NCBI GenBank assembly: GCA_025336685.1
Contig: GCA_025336685.1_4717.1
Length of the DNA stretch: 64,000 nt
Strand: one strand, 5' to 3'
Source: Escherichia coli
GTDB lineage: Bacteria; Pseudomonadota; Gammaproteobacteria; Enterobacterales; Enterobacteriaceae
The notes beneath the pieces are model-generated. The model saw nothing but the letters and a program-made list of their open reading frames with translations, did no database searches and was not told where the DNA came from. The position numbers and the translations under genes are program-made. Below are positions 9,160-62,256 of the stretch, one piece after another; positions within the stretch are counted from its first letter, which is position 1; every line of letters starts with the position of its first letter.

Positions 9160-11754
9160 TTATAACGTGACTGTACCTAATTTGGTTGTCTTATTGAGAT
9201 TGATGACAGAGATCTGGGTATCGCTGGTCGTAATCGTTCCGATGTTAACGCGCTGCCCTTTATCATCTTCTTGCTTGTGGATGGTTAACTCCAATTCTAA
9301 CTGGTTACCGTTAGGAACAACGGAAACGTACCACGTTTTATTACCTGGCGAACTATTATAGTCTTTTAGGTTATAATGGCCTTTAGGTAAAGTCATGGCC
9401 TTACCAGCAAACAAGCAAGCGATGTCTTCGTTGATGTAGATATCGTAACCGGAAGCAGCAACGACCGTAGAAACCATGTAGACATGTTTGACGGTACCTG
9501 CGAGGTATTCGGCTACGCTTGGCCCATATGCTCTGAATACCTGTCCGCCATTGGATAAACGGTACGCTTCCCCAAGGTCGACGTACCCCAGACCCCATAC
9601 CGGATGGACGTTGTAACGACGTCCGCTGCTGGCCAAATACTCATAAAGGTCATCTACCGATAACCCAACCCACGCACCACTGGCGTTCTTAGCACCACGG
9701 AATTGAAAATCGTTTGCGTTTCCTGGAGTAGCAACGCGCACGGACATCGCCCCGGCGATTAACCAACCATCAGCGCATTTACGATACCCTAATGGTCCCC
9801 ACGCCCCCAGAGTGTTGTCAATGTTATTGATTTGGTCCCGAAGCGTGTAAGTTACCGTTGTGATGACCCCCGTTACGGTAATGTTCCCTTCCCGAGCGCT
9901 GGTCGTCACTTCAGACGTCATGATAGCCGCCTTCCTGGAGACAGGATCGTACACCGATATGAACATCAAGCAGGGGGCCCCTGTGGACGCTGGAGGAACC
10001 ACGATAGAGCCGCGTATAACGGAGTATCTCTCAAGCTTCGGCGACGTGTAGGTATCCCAACAAAGTTTGGCCGCTCTGTCGAGTTCTGCCTGCGTGATGC
10101 TTATCGATGCCCCCTTTAAGGCTAACGTATCAGGGTCGACCTCAACCCTGCTGCTTAATCTCCCTTCCTGTAGCCAGCTGCCAGTCACTATCGTCTGGTC
10201 GTCGCTCATGTGAATTGTCGCGAAACGTTCGCTCACTGAACCGCCTACGTGGACGCGACTGGTTGGCGGGAATCCCATCACATCGACCACGCTGTTCTTA
10301 TAGCGATAACTCAAATCCCAATCAGCGGTTATTAACCGCTTTTCGAAATTGCTCTGACCCCCTGGGATGCGGGATAAGACATAGACCTTGTTCTTCGCCG
10401 TGAAGCCAACGAAGCCGTGTGGACCACAGGACCCAACAACGCGGTCCTTGATGTTAATCCAGTTCCCCGCCTCGTACGCGGATATTGGGGTGAGTTTTGC
10501 AAGTTCGTCGAAGACATTACCAGCGTAGTCACCAATGCGATACGATCGAACCATCGGCGAGGCCAGGTTATCATTCACACAGCTGGTAACCAGACCGTCC
10601 TCGCGAATGACCATGTTCCCGGTAAGGTTGGCCCCACCCCATACCCAGAATCCGTCTTTATAATCACGGTCACGAGTTGACATCGTACAAGGGCCACGAA
10701 AGGACACCGAACCATCGGAGTTCACTTGTAATGACGGTGTTCCAGCATTGGGACTTAATGTCCATTGCTTCGTATCCAGGTTCAAATCGACGTACCAGAT
10801 CGTTGTCCCCTGATCGGCGATATTCACGGTACTGTTAGTGTACCATGCCGTCGTGCAGTAGATTCGCGCAATGTTACCTTTTACAACAGCGTAATTTCTA
10901 ACACCCGCACGAATAGGGACAAGCGTCGTTAATTGACTAGGGTACGCTGTATGGTTTAACACTTCCCAGAAAAGAATATGGTCGAGGTTGGTTTTCGTCG
11001 TTCCCTCAAAAATCTTTCCACTAAACCCGGTTTCTTTGGTGAACTGTACGGCCGCACCATTTTTAATGTCCGATAACATACAGGTATGTACATCGAGCCC
11101 GTTTTTCCCTTCATACGCCCACCAGACTAACAGGTACACTTTGTTTTTGTAGACGAACGTACTACAGCGCGCCATGCTGTCGGTAATACCCTCTACCGAC
11201 CCGGTACACATGGCGGCGACATGCTTCTCTACGTTGAATGTGCCGTTAGTCAGAACGATGTAGGGCTGTGTGTTCTCGTCGTTTGCGTCCATCGCGACAC
11301 CCATCATCACGCCGTGGTTATGACACCAGACTGATTGTGGGATTTTAGGTAGTGCTGTAGGGTTGTACTGGCGACTGGTACCTATGGCGGTATCGAGCAG
11401 CCCTTCACCATTGTTTTTACAGATAGCGTAATACACCCCGTTTTTCATGCTGTTGGATGCAGAGCGAAGGATGGAAACACTCCCGTCTGCTTCCTGACAG
11501 ATTCCGTAGGTACGACGTTCGGTCATGGCTATCGCGCCATCAGCTGACCCTTCGATGGCGAGAGGGAAGTAACTTTGATCGCCAATTTGTTCGATATCGG
11601 TTACGTCAATATCAATGTACTTTTCCATCTCGGTGTTGAACTCTGCGGTGCTGTACGCGCCGAGATCGCCAGCCTTTAACCCTGTTGGATTGCTTCGACT
11701 AGCGATACGTTCGGTAACGCTGGTCACCAGTTCGCTAAATTTTTTCATTGCCAT
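9160..11754 (-). CDS. large tail-associated structural protein (possible tailspike or receptor-binding protein)
   Basis: 864-aa ORF, ATG with GAGGTG RBS, placed between two tail-fibre genes; no catalytic motif recognised. Confidence 0.65.
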   Translation of the reverse strand: MAMKKFSELVTSVTERIASRSNPTGLKAGDLGAYSTAEFNTEMEKYIDIDVTDIEQIGDQSYFPLAIEGSADGAIAMTERRTYGICQEADGSVSILRSASNSMKNGVYYAICKNNGEGLLDTAIGTSRQYNPTALPKIPQSVWCHNHGVMMGVAMDANDENTQPYIVLTNGTFNVEKHVAAMCTGSVEGITDSMARCSTFVYKNKVYLLVWWAYEGKNGLDVHTCMLSDIKNGAAVQFTKETGFSGKIFEGTTKTNLDHILFWEVLNHTAYPSQLTTLVPIRAGVRNYAVVKGNIARIYCTTAWYTNSTVNIADQGTTIWYVDLNLDTKQWTLSPNAGTPSLQVNSDGSVSFRGPCTMSTRDRDYKDGFWVWGGANLTGNMVIREDGLVTSCVNDNLASPMVRSYRIGDYAGNVFDELAKLTPISAYEAGNWINIKDRVVGSCGPHGFVGFTAKNKVYVLSRIPGGQSNFEKRLITADWDLSYRYKNSVVDVMGFPPTSRVHVGGSVSERFATIHMSDDQTIVTGSWLQEGRLSSRVEVDPDTLALKGASISITQAELDRAAKLCWDTYTSPKLERYSVIRGSIVVPPASTGAPCLMFISVYDPVSRKAAIMTSEVTTSAREGNITVTGVITTVTYTLRDQINNIDNTLGAWGPLGYRKCADGWLIAGAMSVRVATPGNANDFQFRGAKNASGAWVGLSVDDLYEYLASSGRRYNVHPVWGLGYVDLGEAYRLSNGGQVFRAYGPSVAEYLAGTVKHVYMVSTVVAASGYDIYINEDIACLFAGKAMTLPKGHYNLKDYNSSPGNKTWYVSVVPNGNQLELELTIHKQEDDKGQRVNIGTITTSDTQISVINLNKTTKLGTVTL

Positions 11755-17545: not shown

Positions 17546-17614
17546 CCCAATTTCAGAAATAACCGCGCAGTACTCTTCAATTACCCGGAGAGTTTAGCCA
17601 CATTGAGATATTCG

Positions 17615-18220
17615 TTAATATCCTGATGGTGTCCAGACCAAAGAGACTCCAGCTATAATCGTAGTACTTCCGGTCGCTACCAGAATTCCTGTTGTTGGAA
17701 TATCCGGTCGGGGCGGGTTGAGGTTCTTGTCGGTCGGATGCCATTCGATAGTCTGAGCAACACCATCGATGTACTTGGTATATCGCATGGAGCGGACAAC
17801 GTTATCGAAATCGATGCGACGACCGTAATAACAGATGTACTTTTTACCGTTTTCCAGCGTCTCAATACGACGTAACCCAAATCTAGCACGTTCGTCCGTG
17901 GTCAAATCGTTACCAACTTCACGCATCACGAAAGGTTTGATTTTCCATGGTGAAAGATCGCTTGCTTCGTGAGCGATCGGCATCGAGGAAGGGATGCCGT
18001 TAGCGTTGCGGATGAATTCGTGACCTTGGTTGCCGATACAGAAGTAACGTACAGCAGGATTACCCTCGGGGTAAATCTTTGATTGAATCTGAAGCTTTTC
18101 GTTCAAGGTGCTGTGTTCTTCCCACGCATGAGGAAGACCGAGCGTAAGGTTCGTTTGTACTTGACCGCCGATAATCGTACGGACGATACGATCGGTAGCA
18201 CGGATTTGTGTAGAAGCCAT
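17615..18220 (-). CDS. hypothetical protein (201 aa)
   Basis: ORF with ATG and AGGAAAA RBS. Confidence 0.65.
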   Translation of the reverse strand: MASTQIRATDRIVRTIIGGQVQTNLTLGLPHAWEEHSTLNEKLQIQSKIYPEGNPAVRYFCIGNQGHEFIRNANGIPSSMPIAHEASDLSPWKIKPFVMREVGNDLTTDERARFGLRRIETLENGKKYICYYGRRIDFDNVVRSMRYTKYIDGVAQTIEWHPTDKNLNPPRPDIPTTGILVATGSTTIIAGVSLVWTPSGY

Positions 18221-30289: not shown

Positions 30290-31723
30290 TTACTTTTTCG
30301 ATGACGCCTTCTCAAGAATCTTGAAAAAGGTCATACCTATACCGACAACAGCCGCGGTTATACTCGCAGCGGCTTTCCAAACATCGACGTTACGTTGACG
30401 TCGTGCTTCTTCCGCTTCACGTTGTCTTTTTGCCTCTTCATCACGTCGACGTATCTCAGCAGCAAACTCGTCATGCTTACGTTTGGCTTCTTCGTCTCGA
30501 CGACGAAGTTCAGCGACGAATTCTTCATGTTTGCGTTTAGCCTCATCATCACGACGTTTTAAATCAGCTTGATAATCTTCGTGTATTTGTCTACGTAGAT
30601 CATCTTGACGTTTCATTTCGGCTTGGTGTTGTTCCATCCTACGTTTTTGTTCGTCTTTAAGCTGATCGAGTTCGGCTTTATGTTGTTCGTCGCGCAGCTT
30701 TGCGTCGGCGCGATGCGCTTCATGCATCTGTGCGATAACTGCCTTGTGTTCATCCGCCATACGTCGCATTTCAGCCATCACCCCTTTAAGGGTTTCTTCT
30801 GACGACTTACGTTCGTAGCTGCGTTGGTCGAAATCATTTTTGTAGGCTTCTTTTTGGATGGGATCGCGCCAATGCAATGCCGATTCACGCGTCGGAAAAA
30901 CATTGTACTTCCACATCTCTTTTTCCAAATCTTCGACCGGTACGAAGATGGAGTCATTATTCCCGAAGGTAACCAACATACCTGGCGCGCCTGCTCCATT
31001 CGTTGGTTTTATTTCGAACGCTTTCCCCAGCACGTTAACCCATAGGCTATACGGATTATGAAAGTCGGGTGGCGTCCAGTGGATAGTGAGTTGCGTTCCG
31101 AGAATCCGGAAACCCTCTGTCTTTCCTGTTAAACTACGCGCACATGTTGCGATGTAGGGGTGATCAATCCCTTTCGTAACATGGTCTGCGCTTTTGTATT
31201 CTCCTTTAACTTTTACGATTGCCACGTTGATTTGCGCGACATAAATAGGTTGATTAAAGTTCAACGTGTTGAGGTCAATTTGACATATCTCGTCCAGCGT
31301 ATCGTACCAGTCTTGCTGGTCTAATAGACGCGGTATTTTCTCTGTGTTAACGATGCGACGGATATGCGGTTTCCTTATCGCGTAACCTGTACCATTTTTA
31401 ACACGGAGTATATCCCGACGTCTACCCGCGTAGACGAAGTTTCTGAATGCACCATTCGCATTAGATACGTCATGGCTGTCAACTATTACAGGACTACGAA
31501 ATTTTGAACGTCGTACGATCCTGAATGTATTACTGTCCTCAACTCTACCAGGAATGTACTGGAACATATTGTCGGAGGTGATAACCAACACGGTATGGCC
31601 GGATTCATTAATACATGCCCACCCTAATTCCAGGTCATACAACGGTTCAGCATAACCGTCAATGCGATATGCGTACCATCCCCACGGTTCGAACGCGGTA
31701 TCACATATTGGCATGGAGGGCAT
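30290..31723 (-). CDS. tail-anchored membrane protein: N-terminal globular domain, ER/K-rich helix, C-terminal TM segment
   Basis: 477 aa, ATG with GGAGGTG RBS; residues about 330-450 are E/R/K/D/Q/H repeats (EEAKRKHEEF..RRRDEEAKRKHDEF..); C-terminal AAASITAAVVGIGMTFFKIL then KASSKK. Confidence 0.75.
   Translation of the reverse strand: MPSMPICDTAFEPWGWYAYRIDGYAEPLYDLELGWACINESGHTVLVITSDNMFQYIPGRVEDSNTFRIVRRSKFRSPVIVDSHDVSNANGAFRNFVYAGRRRDILRVKNGTGYAIRKPHIRRIVNTEKIPRLLDQQDWYDTLDEICQIDLNTLNFNQPIYVAQINVAIVKVKGEYKSADHVTKGIDHPYIATCARSLTGKTEGFRILGTQLTIHWTPPDFHNPYSLWVNVLGKAFEIKPTNGAGAPGMLVTFGNNDSIFVPVEDLEKEMWKYNVFPTRESALHWRDPIQKEAYKNDFDQRSYERKSSEETLKGVMAEMRRMADEHKAVIAQMHEAHRADAKLRDEQHKAELDQLKDEQKRRMEQHQAEMKRQDDLRRQIHEDYQADLKRRDDEAKRKHEEFVAELRRRDEEAKRKHDEFAAEIRRRDEEAKRQREAEEARRQRNVDVWKAAASITAAVVGIGMTFFKILEKASSKK
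30380..30560 (-). repeat. imperfect tandem repeat of about 54 nt inside 30290..31723
   Basis: Repeated cttacgtttggcttcttcgtctcgacgacgaagttcagcgacgaattcttcatg-type units encoding the RRRDEEAKRKH(E/D)EF(V/A)AE(L/I) repeats. Confidence 0.5.
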
Positions 31724-31931
31724 CGCTCACCTCCATCAGATTGAAAATTATCATGCATAACGCATTTCCCTTTTCTTGTTCTTATCAAACTGACAGCCGA
31801 CGGTTTCCAGTATCGCCCCCAGCGCGAGAACGACCTTACGTGTTGTCTATGCCTTATTAATCGCAGGCTTCTGTCACCTAGGTAATGTAAGCGTCAAATT
31901 TTTTCTATTCGCAACGATAAACGGCATAAAT

Positions 31932-31960
31932 CTCCCCCAACCCTTACGGGCTGAGGGAGG
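31932..31960 (-). terminator. conserved hairpin element, degenerate copy, 3' of major structural gene
   Basis: CTCCCCC-AA-CCC-TTAC-GGG-CTGA-GGGAGG about 95 nt downstream of the stop of 32057..34279. Confidence 0.4.
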
Positions 31961-32056
31961 CTGACTTATGTATCACGGTGCCGGATGAATGTCCGCAATG
32001 AAACCATCCGCAACGTTGTCGTCAAGAATATCATCCAACGAAGCAGCTACGGTAGT

Positions 32057-34428: not shown

Positions 34429-34833
34429 TCACAAACGACGCAGGCGATAATGGATGGAACGATTGGTGCAATATGAACGGAACAGCGGCAATTGCGCAAC
34501 TTCCGCAAGACTCATATTAATTCGCAGGTGTTCAATAACGGCGCTGTAGTTATCAGCAATACGATCGCTCAATAACTCTTCTGCCAATAAAGGAAGACAA
34601 TCGACAACAATCGCGATCACATCCTCATTAACATAACGCACCCGAACACTCAACGGACGTTTGTCTGGGTTGTAAGTTGGATCCGCCAAACGACGTTCAA
34701 TATCACGCGGATAGCTCGTCAGTAAATGGTAATAACCATTGTCATAACGATTGATGTACTCACACAGCACACCAACGTTCTTCTCTGGCGGTAAACCTGT
34801 TTCGTCATAGTGGATACGCAAACATACCACCAA
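34429..34833 (-). CDS. hypothetical protein (start uncertain)
   Basis: 134-aa ORF without ATG near the 5' end (TTG/GTG only); protein-like composition. Confidence 0.4.
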   Translation of the reverse strand: MVVCLRIHYDETGLPPEKNVGVLCEYINRYDNGYYHLLTSYPRDIERRLADPTYNPDKRPLSVRVRYVNEDVIAIVVDCLPLLAEELLSDRIADNYSAVIEHLRINMSLAEVAQLPLFRSYCTNRSIHYRLRRL

Positions 34834-38214: not shown

Positions 38215-39117
38215 TTAGAAATTATTGCCGAACCGGTTATGGTTGTATGGTTGGTAGTGTCCGTAATTGCCTGGGAAGCCACCATACGTCGTAGGCTCCG
38301 GTTTAGGGACTTCCATAATCGGATTTTTAGAATTGATCGCCATCACGTAAAGGGTTACGGGTGATGCTGCGTGGCCCATTTCGACGACCACACGGCGGAT
38401 ATAATCAATGTATGCTGTTATTGCAGGCGTCAGTTTGTCTCCTTCGGTAGTTATAACGGTGCCGTCGGAAAGAATCTCACGAACCGCGCACCATTTACCA
38501 AGATGAACTCCTTGCTGCGGCTTTACTCCAGCAGAGATAGAGAGATAGGTATCGTACGTCGTTTGATGATACGGATGACTATAAATAGATTCCGCTTTGT
38601 TTTCGTCTTTCCCTAAGTACTCGCCTTGCTTAGGAGTATGAGTTGATATCATATCGGTATTTTCCACGAATGTCTTTCCTTCGAGTTGTTTGATTAATCG
38701 TTTAACCGATTCAGTTATGTTGTTGTGTCTAGGGATCAGCTTTAAGTAAACAGTCGGTAACTGGATTGTTGACCCATCACTACTGCGCGGATAAGATAAT
38801 TTGTAAAACTGTTCAAAAATCCGCCGTAACGCTTCGTTGTCTGAAGTTGCCAATTTAACATAGGAGCATCGTCCTTTAGCATTGGGATTGTAGAGAAGGA
38901 GAATAACGTCTTCGTCAGTACGTGTATCCTGAGGATGACAAGCGATGTAGTGAATGGGAATAGCCGTATCTTTTTCGTCTCCCGGTTTGATAGACAATGA
39001 AAAATCATGAGTTTCTTTTAACGTTCGTAACGTGCAGGATGCGTCGTCACTATTAAGTAAGAACACACCGAAACGCACGCTTTCGTATGCTGACGGGTCG
39101 CGTATTAATAAGGTCAT
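38215..39117 (-). CDS. hypothetical protein, paralogue family C
   Basis: ORF track 38215..39195 (TTG); ATG at M27 has AAGGAG RBS; shares HxTTYDxYL(S/T)I(S/T)(A/G)GV...G(K/E)W..(V/I)REI..DG block with 39203..39976. Confidence 0.65.
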   Translation of the reverse strand: MTLLIRDPSAYESVRFGVFLLNSDDASCTLRTLKETHDFSLSIKPGDEKDTAIPIHYIACHPQDTRTDEDVILLLYNPNAKGRCSYVKLATSDNEALRRIFEQFYKLSYPRSSDGSTIQLPTVYLKLIPRHNNITESVKRLIKQLEGKTFVENTDMISTHTPKQGEYLGKDENKAESIYSHPYHQTTYDTYLSISAGVKPQQGVHLGKWCAVREILSDGTVITTEGDKLTPAITAYIDYIRRVVVEMGHAASPVTLYVMAINSKNPIMEVPKPEPTTYGGFPGNYGHYQPYNHNRFGNNF

Positions 39118-39202
39118 GTTCGGCTCCTTGATTACGATAAGGATGATTGCGGTTTTGTGGTGCTGGTAGGGCCCTAAACAAAGGAACCCTACCAATATTA
39201 GG

Positions 39203-39976
39203 TTATTCAGGATCGGCGTAGAAATGGTGAGGATAGCCGGAGTACGATCCTGCGTTACCGGCTATGGATTCTTTCTGGGAATCGACGACGAGCGCATAGA
39301 ACTGTCGGGAATTTGTTAGCGTTGAGAAATAAGCGGAAAGGACTTTTTCATTCAACGCATCGCAAGGTAGACAGGTGCGACCGCAAAACGTAACGATACG
39401 GCCGTCAGGATAGATCTCACGAATCATTCTCCACTCACCGATATCCACTGGTGATGGTGCTGCTACACCACCTGTTATCGTTAAGTAACGATCGTACGTG
39501 GTATGGCATTCAGGATGAATATAGATCGGCTTGTTCGTTTCGACAGGTTCCGAAGTGTCTCGACGACTAAGGAGTTCAACGACTTCAAGATAAATCGTTG
39601 GTAGATCGCGGAGAATACCGGTGTTACGACGTTTCTTTGTGATTCGCGGACGAATCTCGTTAAGAGCGTATTCGAGCTTACGTTCAGCTTCGTACGCATC
39701 GAGTTTTATTAGGTGGCCCGGTTCATCGGAATGATCCTGAGTTATGTAAACGAAATACGTGTTGTCTTTTGCAGCGCGAAAGATTCGAGCGACCTTAAAT
39801 GTTTCTACAGTGCGATAACCAAGGCGCGATTGATTTTCCACAGGAGAAAATATCCAATGTCGTCCTTCGTCCGCCCCAACAATTTCGTTGAAACTATCCG
39901 TTTGTTCTGGGACCTGGTAGTCAGCCATTAATGTATCAAGAGCGTCATCGGCCAGTTTGGTGTAAATATCTGTCAT
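39203..39976 (-). CDS. hypothetical protein, paralogue family C
   Basis: 257 aa, ATG with GAGGA RBS. Confidence 0.65.
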   Translation of the reverse strand: MTDIYTKLADDALDTLMADYQVPEQTDSFNEIVGADEGRHWIFSPVENQSRLGYRTVETFKVARIFRAAKDNTYFVYITQDHSDEPGHLIKLDAYEAERKLEYALNEIRPRITKKRRNTGILRDLPTIYLEVVELLSRRDTSEPVETNKPIYIHPECHTTYDRYLTITGGVAAPSPVDIGEWRMIREIYPDGRIVTFCGRTCLPCDALNEKVLSAYFSTLTNSRQFYALVVDSQKESIAGNAGSYSGYPHHFYADPE

Positions 39977-45431: not shown

Positions 45432-48400
45432 TTACTTGTAGGCACCACAATGTGCTTTGATGAGGAAAAGCACCGCTTGCATCGGTTTATTGAACTGTTG
45501 CCATAACGTCAATGCCGGATGGAACAACCAATCTTCCAGGCCAAGAACAATACCGTAGTTAACGACATTATTAACATCGTTCTCAACGTTGAGTTCGCTA
45601 TCCAGGAATTTATCGATTGAACGCAGGGCCTGCATGGCGTTGTCGGCAATAAGCCACGCTTCATGCGCTTCACGAGCCGCACGCAGCAATGCTTCCAGTT
45701 CGCCGGTGCTGGCTACCGGTAACTCCTCACTGGTGAGGTCGTCAGAAACCGTAAACTGACGGTTGATACCAGTGTAGATCCACTGCATCAGTTTCGCTGC
45801 TTCCTCGTTCGGGTTGTTACGCGTTGTCGCATAGGTCGCGCTCATTTTCACGATATGCGTTTCACCAAGATACGCTTTGGACCCAACGCCTTTACGATCG
45901 CTGTCTTTCCACGGTTGTACGGTAGCGACCATGAGCTTATCCCATTTCTGAATAGGAATACGCTTCAGACCAACAACCGATCCGGCGGATGTTTCGGACT
46001 GGTTGCTCTTCCGCACTTCGCTGAGCTCACGATCGATAGCAACGATTAATTCACGCGTCATGTTACCAAGCATTTTGATTTCACCCAACGCAGCGATGAG
46101 CTTCTTCACATCGGTAATAGGTTCACCACCGATGGTAAGATGACGGATGAAACGTTTCAGAATAATCCGTTCTGCTGCTGGGTTACCACGACGCGCTTTA
46201 GCCAACGCTTGCTGTGTTTCGGCGAACAGCTTATCCCATGGAGCCGTAGCGGCGGTATAGTAACGGTGGTTGGTTTCAATCCAGTTACCGATACGGTTGA
46301 CCGCACTCTTAACGGTATCCATGAACCCTTCCATCGCAATTTCGGTGGCTTCGACGTTACCCTGGAAGTTATCAGGACCGATCTCGCGTGCCGCTACCAG
46401 AATACCTTCCACTGCACTCACCGCGTGACGACCGATAGCCAGATTTCGCTGCGCTTCTTCAGCACGCTCAACGAATTCCACTACCGCAGGATCGTCAACG
46501 ATTTCCGCCTCGGCAACAACACGTGTACCTGCATCGCCTTCCAGTGTCTCGATAGTGACAACCGGATCGTTTTCACCAGCAACATCCTGGTACTCTTCCT
46601 GTTTGAGTTCGCCGTTATCGGCCGCTGCGACAGCGGTGAGTATACGGACGGTAACATCACCGAGTTCTTTCGCAGCGAATCCGTAGACGGTACATGCTGT
46701 TGTCGCAAAGTTCATCAGTGTGCGTGTGCGTTTAACGATGTAGCCAACGCCGTAGTCACTACCGTTCTTATCGATGTCGCGGATTAACCGTTCAGCTGTC
46801 TCCTGAAGTTGTGTAGCTGCTTTCAGAAGGTCTTCGTCAAACAGTTTCGTTGACGCATCGATCAGCATATCGACGCTAACGTTAGACGGTACGGCATCAT
46901 CCTGCTGTTTCATGGCGCTAAGTTCATCACGGAACTTACGAATACCGTCTAAAGCGGCGTCGGCGCTATGTCCGAACGCGGCCACGCCAGACATTGTTGT
47001 TGCTGTCAGCATGTCCGTATCAGCGTTTGGACTTTCGCCTTCTTTAAGATCCTTCAGCTGGTCGAAGAACTTACGGGATGCTTCAGCGATACGTTTGCTG
47101 TCTTTTACCGCGTTTACGATTTTATCAACCGATTTAGCGTCGTTCGCAAGCAGCGTGTCGAGTTTGTTCCATTCGATGTCGACTTTCTTTTCATCCGAAG
47201 TATTACTCGGTGGAGGAAGCAGTTTCATCACTGGTGCTGTGCGTTGTTCTTTGGTGAGCTTACCAGCCTTCTCTTCGATTTTCTTTTTATTAACACCGAA
47301 AAGTTTTCTTAGGCGTGCCACGATTGCTTTTAAGAACTTCACAACCGCTTCGTAAACCGATTTCAGAATCTGTTTAAAGCGACCTGGCTGCTTTTCCCCG
47401 TCTTCCAGATTGAGATCGCTATTTAGTGCGATATCAAGCTGTTTGTACGATTCCATGATGTATTCGTCTTTGATTTCAGGACGAATCTCGAAGCTTTCCA
47501 TCGGACCCTCAGCCGGACGGAATTCCATTTTCAGTTCGCCTTGCAGAGTAGGGTCGACAATGGCGATAGCTTCACCCTGACCATCAGCGTTAAAGCGCTC
47601 AGCGTAACGAGTACGACGAACAATAACACTCTTATCCCCATCAAGACGACGTACCACCATGGTGCCAGGAATGTACGGTTGTTCTGTTTCAATGACGGTT
47701 ACATCTGTTTCACCTTCACCGAGAATAACAGAAGTGCGCTGTTCAACAACAGGAACATCTAATACACCGCGGGCTTCCAGCTCTTGATGAATTTCGAACG
47801 ACTCTTGTTTCAGATCTTCATCTTCTTCGTTTTCGTCGTCTTCATCGTCACCTTTGGTGGTTTTGGTGTCGGTAGCATCAGCATCCGTGTCTGCGTTGGT
47901 AGCTTCTTCGGACGCAGGTTCGGTGGTGCCGTCCTCGGTAGGCGTTTCATCAGCGTTATCGACGTCAACATCACCTTGCAGTTCTGTTTCCTGAGCAACT
48001 GCTTCGGCTTTCTGCTCACCGGTGTTACCGTCATTAGCGTCGACAGCAGGTTGTTCGTCAGCGACGGTATCTTCAACCTTTTCTACTTTCTCCACGACAC
48101 GTTTAATCACGGTGACTTTGATGGGTTCTTCCGTTGTTTTGGTTTCTGGTGTTGCGTCGGCTACCGCAGGTGCTGTTTCAACAACAGGTTCTGCTTTTTC
48201 CGGTTCGACGACACTACCTTTAACACCTTCGGTGGTTTCTGCAGGTTGCGCTGCCTGTTCGATTTGTGCCGGATTGGTCGGATCGATGGCATTAGCCGCA
48301 TCCTGAATCTTGTTCTTCAGGTTGTCACGGTCAGCGCTAACGGTCGGGTCATTGGTCACTTTCGGTGCCGGTGTTTCGGTCGGCGCGTTTGCCGGATACG

Positions 48401-55396: not shown

Positions 55397-55420
55397 AATT
55401 TGTTTCCTTTACAATAAATT

Positions 55421-55436
55421 GCACATTAGCTAATGT
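55421..55436. promoter_or_regulatory. perfect 16-bp palindrome upstream of 54071..55396
   Basis: CACATTAGCTAATGTG about 25 nt upstream of the start codon, adjacent to a second imperfect hairpin (GCTTAAGTG...CACTTAAAAGC). Confidence 0.35.
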
Positions 55437-55460
55437 GGCTTAAGTGAGCCATTAGCCCAC

Positions 55461-55991
55461 TTAAAAGCCCTTAAAACCCGGTGCCATAGGTTGCCCAAAC
55501 ACCGCATTCAAAGTACATATGATGTCCTGGATGCCATTGTCCCAATGGAGCCAAGTACGCACCATCTCTTCGTCTGACAACGTGATATAACTCATAAGTT
55601 TACCGCTGCTTTCCAGACGTTGGTGCGAACTTAGCGACTGACGATCTGACCAGTTATCAATCAGTTGACCAGCGATCTGAACGTTCGTGTCTCGTCTACC
55701 TGTGTGAATGAACCGCAGTGTATCACGGATAAACTCCAGACTGGTGAAGTTCAGATTTGGGTTATGGCTGTTCATTTCCACCCAGTCGGTAATGGGGTAC
55801 ATCAAACGATAAAGGGTAGAAAGAACCTGACGCTCGTATTTCCAGTCATCGAGAGGAGTACCGTCGACCAGACGCTGATACAAACTAACAACGTCGCGAT
55901 CGTAGTTCTCCTGACGTTTTACGCCGTTAACCGGAAATCCGAAGAATCCGGTACCGTATAACGTTAAAGGGACGTCACGAAGTGCACTCAT
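55461..55991 (-). CDS. hypothetical protein (about 176 aa)
   Basis: ORF track 55461..56123; ATG at M45 forms ATGA overlap with the stop of the upstream ORF; sequence before it overlaps 55988..56464 out of frame. Confidence 0.6.
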   Translation of the reverse strand: MSALRDVPLTLYGTGFFGFPVNGVKRQENYDRDVVSLYQRLVDGTPLDDWKYERQVLSTLYRLMYPITDWVEMNSHNPNLNFTSLEFIRDTLRFIHTGRRDTNVQIAGQLIDNWSDRQSLSSHQRLESSGKLMSYITLSDEEMVRTWLHWDNGIQDIICTLNAVFGQPMAPGFKGF

Positions 55992-56464
55992 ACAGCCGCC
56001 TCTTCTTTTCGTTTGATGTCGTAACGAAGTTTCTTCAGTCGCTCTTCGTGATATTCGATCTGCTGCTGGATTTTTGGATCGTTGCCCGCATTCTGTTGCT
56101 TTTGCTTCAGTGACAAAATCCAATACTCCAACGCTTGGGCTTCTTCTTTGGCTGCTTGTAACGACGCTTCTTCACGTTCGCTGCGCCAGATGCGATAACG
56201 GTAAATAAGCGTGTTGGTCATTTGAGTGTCGGACCATGAACCCATGCGCATCGGGTCAGTATTACCCGCGTTGTACAACCCATTACCAACACCGTCTTCA
56301 TCAGAAACCACAACATCCGGGATTTTATCCAACCCAGCAAGGATCTGTTGTTTCTGTCCACACAGCACCTCGGTGGCAATGGCGAAACCGTACATGTTGG
56401 CGGTCAGGTAAGCAATCTCGTTTTTGGTGAAGAACTCACCAAGTGCTTTATCACCACCTGGCAT
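55988..56464 (-). CDS. hypothetical protein, 3' segment of a possibly interrupted gene
   Basis: 158 aa from the first ATG; the same frame stays open and strongly codon-optimised for 66 more codons upstream (to in-frame TAG at about 56663) with no canonical start. Confidence 0.5.
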   Translation of the reverse strand: MPGGDKALGEFFTKNEIAYLTANMYGFAIATEVLCGQKQQILAGLDKIPDVVVSDEDGVGNGLYNAGNTDPMRMGSWSDTQMTNTLIYRYRIWRSEREEASLQAAKEEAQALEYWILSLKQKQQNAGNDPKIQQQIEYHEERLKKLRYDIKRKEEAAV

Positions 56465-56662
56465 GCTTTCGCAGATGACTGTCGCACGAAGCAGCGTACG
56501 AGCGTAGCTAACGTAGAAGCCCAGGGACTCAACAAGACGTACCAGAGCGGCTTCTTTGAAACTCAGACCGTCGGCAGCAACATCGATTTCCAGGTTTTTG
56601 TTAACACGTTTAACAATTTCTGGAATCAGATCAACAGCATTACGTAGCGCTATGAACGTTTT

Positions 56663-57132
56663 CTACCCAGCTTCCAGAGCGAACGCGGGTTAAACGCTGA
56701 TGCAGATCCTTGTCAGCGAGTTTCCATAAGGCGCTTTCCCTTTTGGAGAAGCGGAGCGGATGTCTCGTAGGCGGAATCGCGGTGTTGTTGATTTCGTCAC
56801 GGATCGATTCAAGTGCGTCAGCAACACCGGCAGGTTTAAAAGCGGCTTCAAACTGCGAATGAATTCTTTAAAATCAATTGCCATGAGTGAGCAATTCCGC
56901 GCTATTTCGAACAGGTTACGTGTGTTAACGAATCTGTGGGACGTTTCCGGTACGGAGGCCTGGAGGATCGTCAGAAGATCAACCCGAGGTTGACGAACTG
57001 TTGATTTTTCCAGCTGTTTGAAGCTTACTGTGGTCCCTTGATCCAAGCTGTGGAAATAGAAGGTCACCATCTCTTCAGCTTGTCGATGATGATCAACTGC
57101 ATTGCAAGGGCTTCAGCCATGACTTTCACGTG
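56663..57132 (-). other. 470-bp interval interrupting coding sequence (frame-disrupted gene, intervening sequence, or recoding region)
   Basis: Lies between the TAA stop of 57133..58020 and the in-frame TAG preceding the optimised 55988..56662 frame; contains a 126-aa ORF (56690..57070) with poor codons and a second open frame entered by -1 shift at T_TTA_AAC (about 56834..56840). Confidence 0.4.
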
Positions 57133-58020
57133 TTATAGCCGACAAACGACGTCCGATTCATGCCTGATGGCTTCCTGGTTAGCCTTAGAGATGATATAGG
57201 TGGAGGCGATTGCTCCAGAAGAAGGGATCTTTGTGCTCGCTGCAGCTTTTGCGGCATTGATGCGCGCAGCATTAACAGCCTTGCGGATACCCTCTTTATC
57301 CATACGTGAGATTCGTTTGTGTTCACGAACCAGGTCACTAAGCAGGATCATGTCGCTCCAGAAAGACAGCTCACCCGCCATCATGCGATGCCAACGTGCT
57401 CGCCAGGTGTTCTGTGGGCCGCCGATCGCTAAAATCGACGCAAGCACTTCCGCTGGTGAACTTGCAATACGCATGCTGATGTTCAATGGCATTTTCATCG
57501 TTGCCTGACCATCGGTCAGCGTCACGGTTAAGAACTTGCCGGTGACCGCGTTTGCATCTTTGTTCAGCAATTCGATCGCTGCGTCGCTGGCCCCAACATC
57601 GAGGCTATTTTTTTGTTTCCCCAGCAGGTTGAATCCTTTGTCATCAAGGAAAACAAGGCTTTTGCTATCCGCACTTTCCAGTGCTAATTTAACAGCCTTA
57701 TCCATCATGTTAGCGTTACGGTTTGGATTCACACGACCCAGCGTTTTATCGACACTGATATTACCCACCTGCATGATGGTGTTCAACGCCAGTAAATAGA
57801 ACCCGGTATACATATTTTCAGCGGTGCGCATGCAGTTGCCTAACGCATTGCGTGCGTCGCTATAATACAACTCACGTTCAAAGATCAACGGCGCGATAAC
57901 GCGTGAAGGTTGTGAGAGTTCAACCAGCGAACCTGGCTGGATAAGTTTATTAACTTCGTAGACTTTAGCGATACCGGACGCAACAACGTTAACAGCGTCG
58001 GCAATTTCTGATGCTACCAT
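57133..58020 (-). CDS. hypothetical protein (295 aa), possible 5' part of an interrupted gene
   Basis: ATG with AAGGA RBS; good codon usage. Confidence 0.7.
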   Translation of the reverse strand: MVASEIADAVNVVASGIAKVYEVNKLIQPGSLVELSQPSRVIAPLIFERELYYSDARNALGNCMRTAENMYTGFYLLALNTIMQVGNISVDKTLGRVNPNRNANMMDKAVKLALESADSKSLVFLDDKGFNLLGKQKNSLDVGASDAAIELLNKDANAVTGKFLTVTLTDGQATMKMPLNISMRIASSPAEVLASILAIGGPQNTWRARWHRMMAGELSFWSDMILLSDLVREHKRISRMDKEGIRKAVNAARINAAKAAASTKIPSSGAIASTYIISKANQEAIRHESDVVCRL

Positions 58021-58054
58021 ATTGAAATCCTTATTTACAAATAAAGGAAAGAAA

Positions 58055-58264
58055 ATGTCTAATTACTACGACCAAGCTATTCAAACCATTCAGGAAGATA
58101 ATGCGTCGTTAACACCCGAAGCTGTGGAGGCAGCGGGCAATGCGGTGTTATTCACTGATTCAGATTGGGCAATGGCGCGGAAGAATATTCGTACCAGTGT
58201 CGGTCAAGGGACATACGGACAGTATCGCCAGACGGTATCGGAATGTGTCACCTATTCCGGGTAA
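58055..58264 (+). CDS. small ORF (about 69 aa), possible N-terminal part of a frameshift fusion with 58140..59258
   Basis: ORF track 58022..58264; ATG at M12 has AAAGGAAAG RBS; good codon usage; ends GGG TAA. Confidence 0.5.
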   Translation: MSNYYDQAIQTIQEDNASLTPEAVEAAGNAVLFTDSDWAMARKNIRTSVGQGTYGQYRQTVSECVTYSG

Positions 58265-59258
58265 CAGTCCGATTCCGATTAACCGCGATCATGCCGGTAT
58301 TACCTTCTTCACACGACCTAATTTACATCTTACCGACGCGAACTTAAAACGAGATCGACGTTTGTGGTCGTTACGTACGGATAACCCTAACAGTATTCAG
58401 GCTGTTGTCCGTGACTACTTGGACCCTGTGGGTGCCAGAAAGCGGAACCATCGAGGACGTGCCATCGTCGATGAGCGCAATCCATTCATAAGTATACTGA
58501 CGGACAACCTGACGGATATCAGCGGTTTCAATGACATGGAAATGCAGGTCTATCAGGGTAAACCGGGATTACGCCAAGAAACCGTTGTGATGGCTGACGG
58601 TTCAGTGGATATGTTTCAACCCTATAACCTGAACGCGACGTTCAAGAACATCATGGGTAACCCCATCATGTTCCTTCATTATATTTGGTTGATTTACATC
58701 GCTGGTGTGCATAATGGTGAACTGACGCCAAGCCCTCAGGCCATCATCGACAATGAAATGGATTACTGGACAAGATGTTATCGTATCATCCTGGATCCGA
58801 CTGGGATGTATGTTCGTTATATCTTCGCACCGACCGCGATGTTTCCTGTCGGGTTACCGACTGGTAATATGGCTAACTACAGCATCGATAAACCCTTCAC
58901 GCAAGATAACGAACGTATCACTATTCCATACCAAGCGGTTGGTAACAACGCATTCGATGAAATTCTGAAGGATGAATTCAATCGACTTGTCCTGATGTTC
59001 TATTACGGTGAGAACGATACCCGTACGTTCCTTGAAGATGAGGAGTTGGTACCTATTTCACCCTACGAGCGTCGAATCATGTCGTATCGTGTCGATATGT
59101 ATCCATTTATTCATCCGTTGACCTCAGAGCTTCTTTGGTTCGTACCCGCTGATGCTTACAACGAATTCTATCTGGATCTTGAGCCATCGGCGTTACCACC
59201 GGATACGTTCAGTCGCGATCTTGTCCGTACCACCATTCCGCAAAATTACGAGGGATAA
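58140..59258 (+). CDS. hypothetical protein (start ambiguous)
   Basis: 372-aa ORF; ATG at 58140 has GGAGG RBS, but codons 1-35 are rare-codon-rich and overlap 58055..58264; clearly coding only from about 58265 onward. Confidence 0.65.
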   Translation: MRCYSLIQIGQWRGRIFVPVSVKGHTDSIARRYRNVSPIPGNSPIPINRDHAGITFFTRPNLHLTDANLKRDRRLWSLRTDNPNSIQAVVRDYLDPVGARKRNHRGRAIVDERNPFISILTDNLTDISGFNDMEMQVYQGKPGLRQETVVMADGSVDMFQPYNLNATFKNIMGNPIMFLHYIWLIYIAGVHNGELTPSPQAIIDNEMDYWTRCYRIILDPTGMYVRYIFAPTAMFPVGLPTGNMANYSIDKPFTQDNERITIPYQAVGNNAFDEILKDEFNRLVLMFYYGENDTRTFLEDEELVPISPYERRIMSYRVDMYPFIHPLTSELLWFVPADAYNEFYLDLEPSALPPDTFSRDLVRTTIPQNYEG

Positions 59259-59261
59259 TAA

Positions 59262-60377
59262 ATGAGCGTAACCAACAAAGATCTTGCTGAACAGCTCAAT
59301 CGCTATATGCTTTCACCCATTGAAATGCAGGCTGTTGCAAGCGATATGATCCGTTTGGCTTCCGATGGTGAGTTAACCCTGGTTGACCCCAGCTGTCCGT
59401 TTGTTTATCTGCTGGAGGTTGCAACGGCGACGGCTGCGAACCAGAACGCGCGGGATGAATCCCGTGTTCGCGAACTGTATCCGAAACTTGCAACCAACTG
59501 GAGCCAGCTCTATCGTTGGATGTATGACGAGTCGTACGTCGGACGTTTCGCAATGCCGGGTAAAACGGAAATCATTTATTCGTTAGGGTATCAGGAAATC
59601 CTCGATCGTGCTGTAGAGATTCCAAACACCGCCGCATCCGATGATTTAAGCCGTTCTTACAGCCGTAAGTTAGTGATACCACGTACGACGGTGTTTACGG
59701 TAGCCGGAATGGATTTCGGGCTGCATTATCCCATCGAAATCCAAGTGCAGGCGCACGACCAGATACGCGTTGTTTATAACACTGATAACATCAGCCCGCT
59801 GCAAACCTTGGAGAGTAACCAAGTTGAGTATGGTGTTGTTCGTGTAAAAGCGGGTAAAGTGTTGGTGATGCGTATCCCACTGTTCCAGTTTAAAACGCTG
59901 GTAAAAGATGTGCCGTTTAACAGCGTTCACGGGATGAACAGCAGCATTACCTTCGAAGATCAGTTTTACCATTGTCGTGCGTACATGTCGTCGGATAACG
60001 ATACCTGGACGGAGATAGCGACAACCCACAGCCAGCAGATCTACGATCCGTTAACACCGACCATCGCGTTACAAGTAGAAGGGAACAAACTTAACTGGCG
60101 TGTTCCTGAAATTTATTTGTCTCAAGGTACGATGGATAAAAGCACCATTCGACTCGAGGTGTTGACGACGAAAGGGAAAATCAGCGTCGACCCGTCTGAT
60201 TACGACGTGACTGATTGGAAAGATAATTACATCGATCTGTCACCAAAAGCCGAACAGAAATACAGTGCGCCGCTAAGTGCGTTCAACATTAAAGGGATTT
60301 ATAGTGAAGGGGCGTTGTCGGGTGGACGATCTGCGTTAACATTCGAGGAACAACGTGAACGCGTTATGGCGAAGTGA
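59262..60377 (+). CDS. hypothetical protein (371 aa)
   Basis: ATG with GAGGGA RBS. Confidence 0.75.
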   Translation: MSVTNKDLAEQLNRYMLSPIEMQAVASDMIRLASDGELTLVDPSCPFVYLLEVATATAANQNARDESRVRELYPKLATNWSQLYRWMYDESYVGRFAMPGKTEIIYSLGYQEILDRAVEIPNTAASDDLSRSYSRKLVIPRTTVFTVAGMDFGLHYPIEIQVQAHDQIRVVYNTDNISPLQTLESNQVEYGVVRVKAGKVLVMRIPLFQFKTLVKDVPFNSVHGMNSSITFEDQFYHCRAYMSSDNDTWTEIATTHSQQIYDPLTPTIALQVEGNKLNWRVPEIYLSQGTMDKSTIRLEVLTTKGKISVDPSDYDVTDWKDNYIDLSPKAEQKYSAPLSAFNIKGIYSEGALSGGRSALTFEEQRERVMAK

Positions 60378-61711
60378 ACAAAACCGGAGTACCGATCACG
60401 GGAACACAGGTAGAGCTGGTGCTTCAAGATGCGGGTTATGGGATGGTAACCACTATCGACAACGTAACCAATCGTTCGTTCCTGGCAACCCGAGATTTAC
60501 CGCAATTGAGCGACAGCGTGCCGCAAGCCGGTTCGTTGATGGGGTCTTTCTATACTTCAGCCGCAGCGTTGGTGAAAAGTAAGTTTGTCGCCGATAACGG
60601 CGATCGTATCACGATTAAACCGGACTGTCTGTATCGCGACAGTAACGGAAGTATCGCACTGTTGTCGGACGATGAAATTGACCGTATTAATGCAGGTAAC
60701 TCTGATGCGAAGTTGAACGCGGTAAACAACGCCATGTTGTTTTACAGCCCGTTTCATTACGTGTTGGATGCGACAAGCGATTTCGACATTCATGCTTATT
60801 ACCTGGATGCTCCTAAGATCGGCACACAAGCATTCCTCGACGCGAACGAGACAATCCCGTTAACCGCTATGGTGACCGGATACCGTCTGGATCGTATCGC
60901 TGAAGGATATCGTCTAAGCCTCATTGTAGAAGGTAACGACGCATGGAAGGCGCTCGACGATAAAAACGTGCACGTGCAGCTGGGGTTCAATCCGCGGGGT
61001 GAGGGTGATTATGCGACGATGTTAGCATCACCGACAACCGATGAACAAGGTCGTCGTTTGTTCACCTTCGATATCACCACGAATTATGATTTCACGCGAA
61101 TCCTGGCCGATGATTCCACGGCGTATGAACCATATATCGCATTGACCTCTTTCTCGATGTATGAATCGACACCGCGGGATTACTGGGCATCACTGCAGCA
61201 GTATTTGGAAATCTTCCATGTGGTGACGGATTATGCGCCGGAAGATGTCGACGGTATTTTACACAGTGCTTCCGATAATTACCTGGTTAAGAAACTTACG
61301 CTTCAAAATGGGTATTGTTTCTACCGTGAACGTCTCACCGCAACCTTTGGTTATGATCTGGATGGTCTTTGGATGCGCTCTCGTACGGTAGCCTCGGAGA
61401 TTACGTATAAACGTTACACCGAGAACATTCCGTGGGTGTATGAAGAAGATATTCCAGCGACGGATGAGACCGGTTCGGTTATCATTGAACAAGGTGATGA
61501 CGGTACGCTGTCAGTTAAATACCTGCATCGTAAAGGTGACCCGAAATTAAACAGTGATGGAAGCCAAGCCTATCGTTATCTGAAAGGCGACATCATGAAA
61601 GATAATTACGGTAATCCGATCCTGTCGATGAACGTGAAGTTCTGCGTAGCCTGGACATGTTCTTTATTGATGCGTCGTATCTGCTTTAGCGAACGATACG
61701 GACGTGATTGA
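60374..61711 (+). CDS. hypothetical protein (445 aa)
   Basis: GTG start overlapping the upstream TGA stop (GTGA). Confidence 0.65.
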   Translation: MNKTGVPITGTQVELVLQDAGYGMVTTIDNVTNRSFLATRDLPQLSDSVPQAGSLMGSFYTSAAALVKSKFVADNGDRITIKPDCLYRDSNGSIALLSDDEIDRINAGNSDAKLNAVNNAMLFYSPFHYVLDATSDFDIHAYYLDAPKIGTQAFLDANETIPLTAMVTGYRLDRIAEGYRLSLIVEGNDAWKALDDKNVHVQLGFNPRGEGDYATMLASPTTDEQGRRLFTFDITTNYDFTRILADDSTAYEPYIALTSFSMYESTPRDYWASLQQYLEIFHVVTDYAPEDVDGILHSASDNYLVKKLTLQNGYCFYRERLTATFGYDLDGLWMRSRTVASEITYKRYTENIPWVYEEDIPATDETGSVIIEQGDDGTLSVKYLHRKGDPKLNSDGSQAYRYLKGDIMKDNYGNPILSMNVKFCVAWTCSLLMRRICFSERYGRD

Positions 61712-62256
61712 GTATCGTAACACGATTCCTACGCAGCTTATCGGAGTGGATCAAGAACGATATCATCACATTCAGGAATTTCTGTTATGAGGAAACAGAG
61801 ATTTCACTGTATCCTAAACAATCGTTGGGGTATGTGGATGTTATTGTCGAAAACGGATTGGAAACAACGCTTCCTGCCGCTCTATCGTTCAACGTGACGC
61901 TTTACTTACCAGCTAAGCAATACGCGGATTTGGATCTCCGTCAAGTCCTTCAAGCGATGGTATCGAAAGTCATCAACGAATGCTTAACGTCCCGTACGGT
62001 GGCTAAAGCAGAAATGATCGCGATGATTCGTGAGGAGGGTGGTGACGACATCCTTAACGTTGAAATCGATGATTTTGGACCAGGTAAGAACCTCAGTGTT
62101 TATACTGCGAAGAACGATGGTGTTCGCTGCGCGGTGAAGAAAGAGCTTTATGTGAAAGCGGATGGTATCTTGTCCGTACGTGAAGCGATCGATGTAAGTT
62201 TTGTGAAACATGCACAAAGCAACAGTTCGGCATTAGCGCAAGGCCTTCGTGTCTAA
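61708..62256 (+). CDS. hypothetical protein (start uncertain)
   Basis: 182-aa ORF starting at TTG overlapping the upstream stop; first 40 codons rare-codon-rich; an RBS-preceded ATG exists in the +1 frame near 61787. Confidence 0.5.
   Translation: MSIVTRFLRSLSEWIKNDIITFRNFCYEETEISLYPKQSLGYVDVIVENGLETTLPAALSFNVTLYLPAKQYADLDLRQVLQAMVSKVINECLTSRTVAKAEMIAMIREEGGDDILNVEIDDFGPGKNLSVYTAKNDGVRCAVKKELYVKADGILSVREAIDVSFVKHAQSNSSALAQGLRV

Follow-up and report, generated by a model that had tools for sequence, protein, structure and literature searches.

Private indels over two adjacent virion genes in a Goslar-like phage sequence and their probable origin as a sequence-quality artefact

Genes at the locus and their relatives

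The window, i.e., the whole 64,000-nt stretch of DNA that was analysed, is colinear with Escherichia phage Goslar at 94–96% identity. The locus studied here carries, on the minus strand, the orthologues of Goslar gp061 (56925..58020; 368 aa in Goslar, phiKZ gp89-like) and gp060 (55988..56884; 300 aa in Goslar). A spacer (56885..56924) that measures 39 bp in relatives lies between them. Comparison with Goslar placed the genuine gp061 stop at 56927..56925 and the genuine gp060 ATG at 56884..56882. Nucleotide identity to Goslar in this stretch is about 96% with order and strands alike, and the synteny gp063-gp062-gp061-gp060-gp059-gp058 is retained. The gp059 orthologue (55461..55991, minus strand), a PhiKZ_gp91 vertex-binding protein gene, is intact, with a 4-nt overlap at the gp060 stop; relatives were retrieved with this gene as the anchor.

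The locus was examined in 13 relatives: Goslar, two IMG/VR contigs and ten metagenome or isolate-assembly contigs (231–247 kb). The alignment comprised 11 sequences, namely the window and ten relatives. Goslar-like contigs were common in isolate assemblies and metagenomes. The 368-aa and 300-aa genes were intact at 13 of 13 related loci; in Goslar and the 12 other Goslar-like contigs, gp061 and gp060 are separate conventional ORFs, each with its own start and stop, parted by the 39-bp spacer. Goslar gp061 matched phrog_3239 end to end (profile positions 14–372 of 372), and residues 7–298 of Goslar gp060 matched phrog_3187 (positions 5–298 of 301), in both cases including the parts missing in the window. 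By proteomics and GFP work, Goslar gp60 and gp61 are separate virion proteins. Both are packaged into virions and pass into the host by injection, and gp61 is the predicted binding partner of gp60 (bioRxiv 10.64898/2026.04.21.720040).

As written, the window contains no full-length ORFs of about 368 and 300 codons, and instead shows a 295-aa ORF and a start-less 224-codon frame. The 295-aa ORF (57133..58020, minus strand) is gp061 cut off by the first private deletion and extended by an out-of-frame tail to a premature TAA; an exact look-up of this protein in a gene-position index returned no record. The frame of 55988..56464 is open up to 56662, directly after a TAG at 56665..56663, and has its first ATG at 56464, i.e., 66 codons in. 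Between these frames lie a 126-aa ORF (56690..57070, minus strand) ending at a TAA and a third, protein-like frame that reads ...PAGVADALESIRDEINNTAIP... The 126-aa ORF is a chimeric by-product of frames, in which the gp061 tail and the spacer, read out of frame, are followed by the 14 genuine opening codons of gp060 (MAIDFKEFIRSLKP) and then by gp060 out of frame; it had no match among PHROG families. An earlier, sequence-only reading had described these frames and stops correctly, but it took them for one coding sequence interrupted by a 470-bp interval. There are actually two adjacent genes, and the interval is wholly colinear with intact sequence in the relatives. As judged by sequence comparison, the interval within 58020..55988 is the 3' end of gp061, the 39-bp spacer and the 5' end of gp060.

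A patch of private indels with preserved coding

From 57158 to 56653, 14 small indel events (19 columns), 13 of them deletions, and 20 substitutions were found in 515 bp. All were private to the window and fell in columns that are essentially invariant in the ten aligned relatives. The indel density was about 90-fold that of the rest of the window, which has about 0.3 private indel events per kb (Poisson P of about 7e-23).

Codons 1–288 of gp061 (58020..57158) are undamaged, and eight private deletions follow (about 57158, 57141, 57128 (-4), 57082, 57004, 56981 (-2) and 56958). The fragments between them (IGRRL / GYNT / KVMAEALAMQLIIID / AEEMVTFYFHSLDQGTTVSFKQLEK / NSSSTSG / DLLTILQ / LRTGNVPQIR*) equal Goslar residues 289–368 except for two residues (GYNT vs. 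DYTT); KVMAEALAMQLIIIDEAEEMVTFYFHSLDQGTTVSFK is an example of a gp061 C-terminal peptide. The spacer carries a private 1-nt deletion at 56910 and a private +2 insertion with four substitutions (56894–56900), which replaces the AGGTG Shine-Dalgarno-like motif of Goslar. In gp060, four private deletions were found at 56842 (-1), 56771 (-1), 56741/56739 (-2) and 56653 (-2). Since they sum to -6, the original frame is back at 56652 and intact to the stop at 55988. The fragments MAIDFKEFIRSLKP / FKPAGVADALESIRDEINNTAIP / YETSAPLLQ / ESALWKLADKDLHQRLTRVRSGSWVENV / ALRNAV... correspond to Goslar residues 1–300.

The frame-corrected translation between indels is nearly identical to that of Goslar, with the gp061 stop and the gp060 start both retained. 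The intact flanking parts differ from Goslar by 33 synonymous and 4 nonsynonymous codon changes, a ratio that indicates selection acting until essentially now. An old pseudogene was ruled out by this synonymous bias together with the near-identical peptides between indels. A diversity-generating or hypervariable region was also dropped, since the region has indels where adenine-specific substitutions would be expected, and hardly varies among the relatives.

Several of the deletions are homopolymer contractions (T5 to T4, A5 to A4, G4 to G3, T3 to T2 and CC to C), but homopolymer changes make up only about one third of the patch indels, the others including one 4-nt deletion and one 2-nt insertion. 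They therefore cannot all be assigned to the signature of one platform. Most of the 20 private substitutions (about 15) sit close to an indel, at a distance of a few nucleotides, and this clustering gives the impression of miscalled stretches. A 34-mer across the lesion at 56842 was absent from viral, genome and metagenome collections, and a megablast search of complete E. coli genomes for contigs sharing the lesions gave no hit.

Private frame-breaking indels were also found in four more virion genes of the window, i.e., the orthologues of gp032 (17583–17669), gp042 (34813), gp062 and gp063. The gp062 orthologue (58055..59258, plus strand; tail-tube initiator of 401 aa, Pfam Phage_TTP_15) has lost 2 nt at 58217/58218, a private deletion that splits the gene. 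The gp063 orthologue (59262..62256, plus strand; 997 aa, inner-baseplate wedge) is divided into three ORFs, the private indels responsible lying at 60371 (-1), 61623 (-1), 61686 (+2) and 61744 (+1). In Goslar, gp032, gp042, gp062 and gp063 are the baseplate spoke, vertex-binding complex, tail-tube initiator and baseplate wedge, all resolved by cryo-EM. A plaque-forming phage carrying all these lesions appears unlikely.

Candidate explanations of the patch

The heptamer on the minus strand at 56840..56834 had been singled out as a slippery site. TTTAAAC is present there, reads T_TTA_AAC in the frame that starts at the gp060 ATG (56884) and is used by the 126-aa ORF, and has the canonical X_XXY_YYZ form in frame from a genuine start; a -1 slip enters the frame encoding GVADALESIRDEINNTAIP. 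Programmed recoding, in which a -1 frameshift at this site and maybe further shifts would join the frames into a functional product, is nevertheless extremely improbable. The heptamer is the conserved run CTTTTTAAAC (gp060 codons 14–17, L F K R) minus one T. The extra T of the conserved T5 run (column at 56842) is present in 10 of 10 aligned relatives and in Goslar, all of which have a single 300-codon ORF in place of the heptamer and its two-frame architecture. The slip restores the gp060 frame for only about 23 codons, the next private deletion lying 71 nt downstream at 56771. Reading gp060 would take four shifts (-1, -1, -2 and -2) and reading gp061 another eight, hence twelve for both genes. 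No stimulatory structure was detected by pseudoknot-free folding of the 94 nt 3' of the heptamer (-19.1 kcal/mol, z = -0.40 vs. shuffles, non-significant). Nor is the heptamer itself remarkable: TTTAAAC occurs nine times in the window, three XXXYYYN heptamers lie in the 470-nt interval, and XXXYYYN sites (Y = A or T) are common at about 1.4 per kb per strand. Recoding is effectively refuted by the comparison with relatives.

An intervening sequence, i.e., a group I or II intron, an intein or an inserted mobile element parting two exons of one gene, would account for the seemingly non-coding 470 bp that separate two well-coded frames, and the slightly raised number of palindromic hexamers appeared to fit. 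The probability of this explanation is vanishingly small. There is no extra DNA: the region 55400–58300 follows Goslar colinearly and measures 2901 bp against 2919 bp, 18 nt less, and each part of the "gap" has its homologous counterpart in the coding sequence of gp061 or gp060 or in their spacer. The 126-aa ORF is a chimera of frames without a family match, and the flanks are two different genes whose products were detected separately in Goslar. Rfam intron models gave no hit at E <= 1, the sole Rfam hit being a chance snoRNA match (0.36). On the evidence of the alignment, an intervening sequence can be considered refuted by colinearity. As for the palindromic hexamers, 13 rather than the 15 first reported were counted in the interval, against a window-wide mean of 7.0 (sd 2.5), and about 2.2% of equal-length windows reach 13; the excess is mild and not remarkable. 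Since the orthologous Goslar interval has only about 8.4 per 470 nt, near background, the private changes themselves account for some of the excess. A foreign origin on the basis of palindromes was rejected because the excess is mild and the Goslar stretch near background. Of the four options that the sequence-only reading had offered, frameshift damage or assembly error in general was supported by the comparison with Goslar and the 12 other relatives, and an intervening sequence and programmed recoding were ruled out by it.

The indels might instead be real and very recent, so that the window would represent a defective Goslar-like genome, e.g., a variant from a mixed population that is non-viable or depends on a helper, or template DNA that had been mutagenised or damaged. 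There, gp061 would be truncated at codon 288 and gp060 would lack its N-terminal ~80 codons. The lesions are, after all, present in the sequence as given, and defective variants could exist in the isolate assemblies and metagenomes in which Goslar-like contigs are common. The private substitutions are transition-rich (16 of 20), as is also expected of real mutation, and the net -6 in gp060 restores the frame, which may be a coincidence (about 1 in 3) or may be a hint of selection on real lesions. This explanation is rather unlikely. No common mutational process would place 14 independent indels within 515 bp and leave the sequence between them almost perfectly preserved, six virion genes are broken in 64 kb, the tail-tube initiator and baseplate wedge among them, and the flanking codons are under strong purifying selection. 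The heptamer lesion, the one that was searched for, was found in no other public contig. Nucleus-forming jumbo phages are not known to integrate, so that a dead copy would have no obvious means of persisting. A further reading holds that the indels are real and that full-length gp061 and gp060 are made by message correction at about 12 sites. Possible routes would be co-transcriptional nucleotide insertion by phage RNA polymerases, in the style of insertional editing in the Physarum mitochondrion, or serial ribosomal frameshifts. Near-perfect preservation of coding between indels would be the expected look of such a "cryptogene", but its probability is minimal.

The patch is best explained as a base-calling or assembly artefact over two ordinary genes, a reading to which a probability of about 0.8 is given and whose artefact origin we infer rather than observe. 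The interval would then be a patch of poor consensus in the record, covering the 3' end of gp061, the 39-bp spacer and the 5' end of gp060. Base-calling or assembly indels, e.g., in an unpolished or low-coverage stretch or at a contig-end join, would be likely causes. In the real phage, the genes would be ordinary ones of 368 and 300 codons, each initiated from its own start; their products would be packaged in the virion and injected with the DNA, and neither splicing nor bypass nor recoding would take place at the locus. The "slippery heptamer" would be a T5 homopolymer called one base short. The observations on which this reading draws are the colinearity with relatives, the privacy and clustering of the indels, the coding preserved between them and the intact genes in all relatives examined. 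The changes occur in this record alone, at positions where close relatives do not vary, and lesions of the same type lie in several unrelated essential genes of the record.

Should the patch be an artefact, these results would be of practical use in curation: at least six virion genes are wrongly encoded in the record, from which automatic annotation would derive proteins that are truncated or spurious, e.g., the ORFs of 295, 126 and 158 aa. They also point to a trap: where a T-run precedes an A-run, a homopolymer miscall in the former produces what looks like a textbook slippery heptamer followed by a protein-like -1 frame. Only if the lesions are real would there be biology to explain, i.e., a helper-maintained defective jumbo-phage genome or, very improbably, message correction.

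Comparison with known systems

The closest comparison is Goslar itself (NC_048170: HOV27_gp061 and HOV27_gp060), where the two genes have the same position, order and strand in the conserved gp063-gp058 block and encode amino acids near-identical to those of the window wherever the frame can be traced. Goslar gp061 is annotated with weak similarity to phiKZ ORF089, and gp060 is flanked by phiKZ gp89-like and gp91-like genes. The window differs by its 14 private indels, which disrupt the final 80 codons of gp061, the spacer with the ribosome-binding site and the initial 79 codons of gp060. Unlike Goslar, the record as written yields a gp061 cut short to 295 aa and a gp060 without its N-terminus.

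Canonical -1 frameshift sites, such as those of the lambda-like phage tail-assembly chaperone G/GT and of dnaX, share with the window the form of the heptamer, its register and a protein-like -1 frame. In contrast to these sites, the heptamer of the window is not conserved, lacks a stimulator and is followed by an in-frame stretch of only 23 codons. The relatives of the window encode the same peptide in one frame.

Patches of consensus error in long-read or hybrid assemblies are marked by deletion-biased errors, homopolymer contractions and unpolished low-coverage segments. The window differs from them in also having non-homopolymer events, i.e., the 4-nt deletion and the 2-nt insertion with neighbouring substitutions. 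It resembles them in its deletion bias (13 of 14), its homopolymer contractions, its indel-adjacent substitutions, the privacy of the changes to one record and their spread over several unrelated genes.

Two Goslar-like genes in the flagged stretch

The window was colinear with the nucleus-forming jumbo phage Escherichia phage vB_EcoM_Goslar (Goslar), with an identity of 93-94% over most of its length and of 96.1% over 55400-58300. The sequence-only reading had described one coding sequence with an interruption. In Goslar, however, the counterpart consists of two separate annotated genes on the same strand, gp061 (368 aa, with weak similarity to phiKZ ORF089) and gp060 (300 aa), which starts 39 bp past the end of gp061. 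The next gene, gp059, encodes a PhiKZ_gp91 vertex-binding protein and overlaps gp060 by 4 nt. Therefore, the flagged stretch is not a single interrupted coding sequence, but spans a boundary between two genes, from the 3' part of gp061 across a short spacer into the 5' part of gp060.

The reading frames described earlier were all found in the record as written: the 295-aa ORF ending with TAA (57133..58020, - strand), a second well-coded frame open from 56662 to a stop at 55988 (preceded by TAG at 56665..56663, first ATG at 56464), the 126-aa ORF at 56690..57070, a third frame reading PAGVADALESIRDEINNTAIP, and the putative slippery heptamer TTTAAAC at 56840..56834 in the register T_TTA_AAC. 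The 126-aa ORF is chimeric in frame and includes the genuine codons 1-14 of gp060; a family match was looked for and none was found. A look-up of the 295-aa product found no record of it. TTTAAAC occurs nine times in the window, and the XXXYYYN class of heptamers has a density of 1.4 per kb per strand. The reported excess of palindromic hexamers exists as a raised count (13 versus 7.0 ± 2.5), but carries less weight than claimed, as about 2.2% of equal-length windows reach 13.

Private indels in the patch and elsewhere in the window

Base-by-base alignment with Goslar revealed 14 small indel events at 57158..56653 (- strand; termed the patch), 13 of them deletions. Eight events (net -11) fell into the last 80 codons of gp061, two into the gp061-gp060 spacer and four (-1, -1, -2, -2) into the first 79 codons of gp060. 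Because the latter sum to net -6, the gp060 frame re-opens at 56652. In the spacer, a +2 insertion with adjoining substitutions overwrites an AGGTG motif that precedes the gp060 start codon. The heptamer itself is one of the patch events: Goslar reads CCG CTT TTT AAA CGC (P L F K R) at this site, and one T of its T5 run was lost in the window. Only about a third of the patch indels were of the homopolymer type. Frame-adjusted translation between the indels gave sequences nearly identical to the Goslar proteins; the stop of gp061 (LRTGNVPQIR*, 56927..56925) and the start of gp060 (MAIDFKEFIR..., ATG at 56884) were preserved.

For comparison, the intact gp059 protein served as anchor to retrieve ten contigs (231-247 kb) of metagenomic or isolate-assembly origin; scanning separately with gp060 of Goslar added two contigs from IMG/VR. 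The block genes of 997, 401, 368, 300 and 176 aa were present in all of these contigs. In the 11-sequence alignment, all 19 indel columns of the window in the patch were private, i.e., seen in no aligned relative, and the ten relatives were unanimous at nearly all of them. The same 515 bp held 20 private substitutions, about 15 of which lay no more than a few nucleotides from an indel. Given a background of about 0.3 private indel events per kb, the Poisson probability of the patch was about 7e-23. The heptamer was absent from all relatives, and a 34-mer spanning its lesion was absent from the viral, genome and metagenome collections.

Private frame-breaking indels of the same kind were present in the orthologues of gp032, gp042, gp062 and gp063. 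Four events (-1, -2, +1, +2) at 17583-17669 (- strand) reduced the 294-aa gp032 gene, intact in eight relatives, to a 201-aa ORF (17615..18220). A +1 at 34813, found in 0 of 14 relatives compared, frameshifts the 206-aa vertex-binding-complex gene gp042 (34429..~35050, - strand). On the + strand, a -2 at 58217-58218 split the tail-tube initiator gene gp062 into two ORFs, and indels at 60371, 61623, 61686 and 61744 left the 997-aa baseplate wedge gene gp063 as three (59262..60377, 60374..61711 and 61708..62256). A further private cluster at 31677-31996, covering the start of gp040 and the spacer between it and the major capsid gene, was mostly non-coding and was not scored as gene-breaking (-3 with adjoining substitutions at 31675-31680, +1 at 31808, -2 at 31929, -3 at 31996). 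The remaining coding indels relative to Goslar were multiples of three or lay in truly divergent segments. The gp053 orthologue (PF12699 family) carries a private 18-bp deletion at 47847, which, unlike the other private indels, keeps the frame and looks like ordinary variation.

Origin of the indels

The most economical explanation, to which we assign a probability of about 0.8, is that the patch is low-quality consensus sequence in the record, the densest of several such patches. This origin is supported by the bias towards deletions, the contraction of homopolymers and the clustering of substitutions at indels. Frameshift decay and assembly error had both been proposed earlier; frame-breaking indels are indeed present, with an error patch favoured, whereas an old pseudogene was rejected. 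The intact flanks differ from Goslar by 33 synonymous but only 4 nonsynonymous codons and the inter-indel peptides are preserved; thus, gp061 and gp060 were under selection until essentially the present. The main rival, in which a defective or damaged genome carries real lesions of very recent date, is considered improbable. In 2026, a study of Goslar by cryo-EM and mass spectrometry assigned gp32 to the baseplate spokes, gp42 to the vertex-binding complex, gp62 as tail-tube initiator and gp63 to the inner-baseplate wedge, and described gp60 (about 140 copies per virion) and gp61 (>200 copies) as virion-packaged and host-injected (bioRxiv 10.64898/2026.04.21.720040). Frameshifts in all six of these genes in one viable phage are unlikely.

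An intervening sequence is effectively excluded, as the interval holds no additional DNA compared with any relative and no Rfam intron match. The same applies to programmed frameshifting: a -1 slip at the heptamer restores the gp060 frame for 71 nt only, no stable structure was found 3' of it (z = -0.40), and reading both gp061 and gp060 by recoding would take 12 frame changes of differing sizes. A scenario of real lesions with correction of about 12 sites, either in the RNA or by the ribosome, is extremely improbable. As a biological feature, the flagged interval is not real.

The Goslar-like lineage

About 1.7 kb at 38248-39971 did not align to Goslar; this is a variable accessory module in place of the gp047 region, with ORFs of 257 aa (39203..39976) and about 300 aa (within 38215..39195) that have counterparts in other Goslar-like contigs (L032-L039). 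Alignment was also poor or absent at 1-2676 and 9480-11415. The latter includes part of the gp026 orthologue, adjoins tail-fibre-like genes with Peptidase_S74, and may reflect host-range module divergence.

Goslar-like genomes that are nearly complete, on contigs of 235-244 kb, were found in many ENA metagenomes and in NCBI-deposited assemblies (loci L015, L018, L021, L026, L027 and L029-L031; GCA_008106945.1, GCA_009290805.1, GCA_019944695.1, GCA_014829495.1 and others), and identical copies of the window's gp059 protein occurred in 499 blocks of the collection. The lineage is widespread, and such phages may accompany cultured isolates. The genes underlying the flagged stretch are known and ordinary for the Goslar-like phage group.
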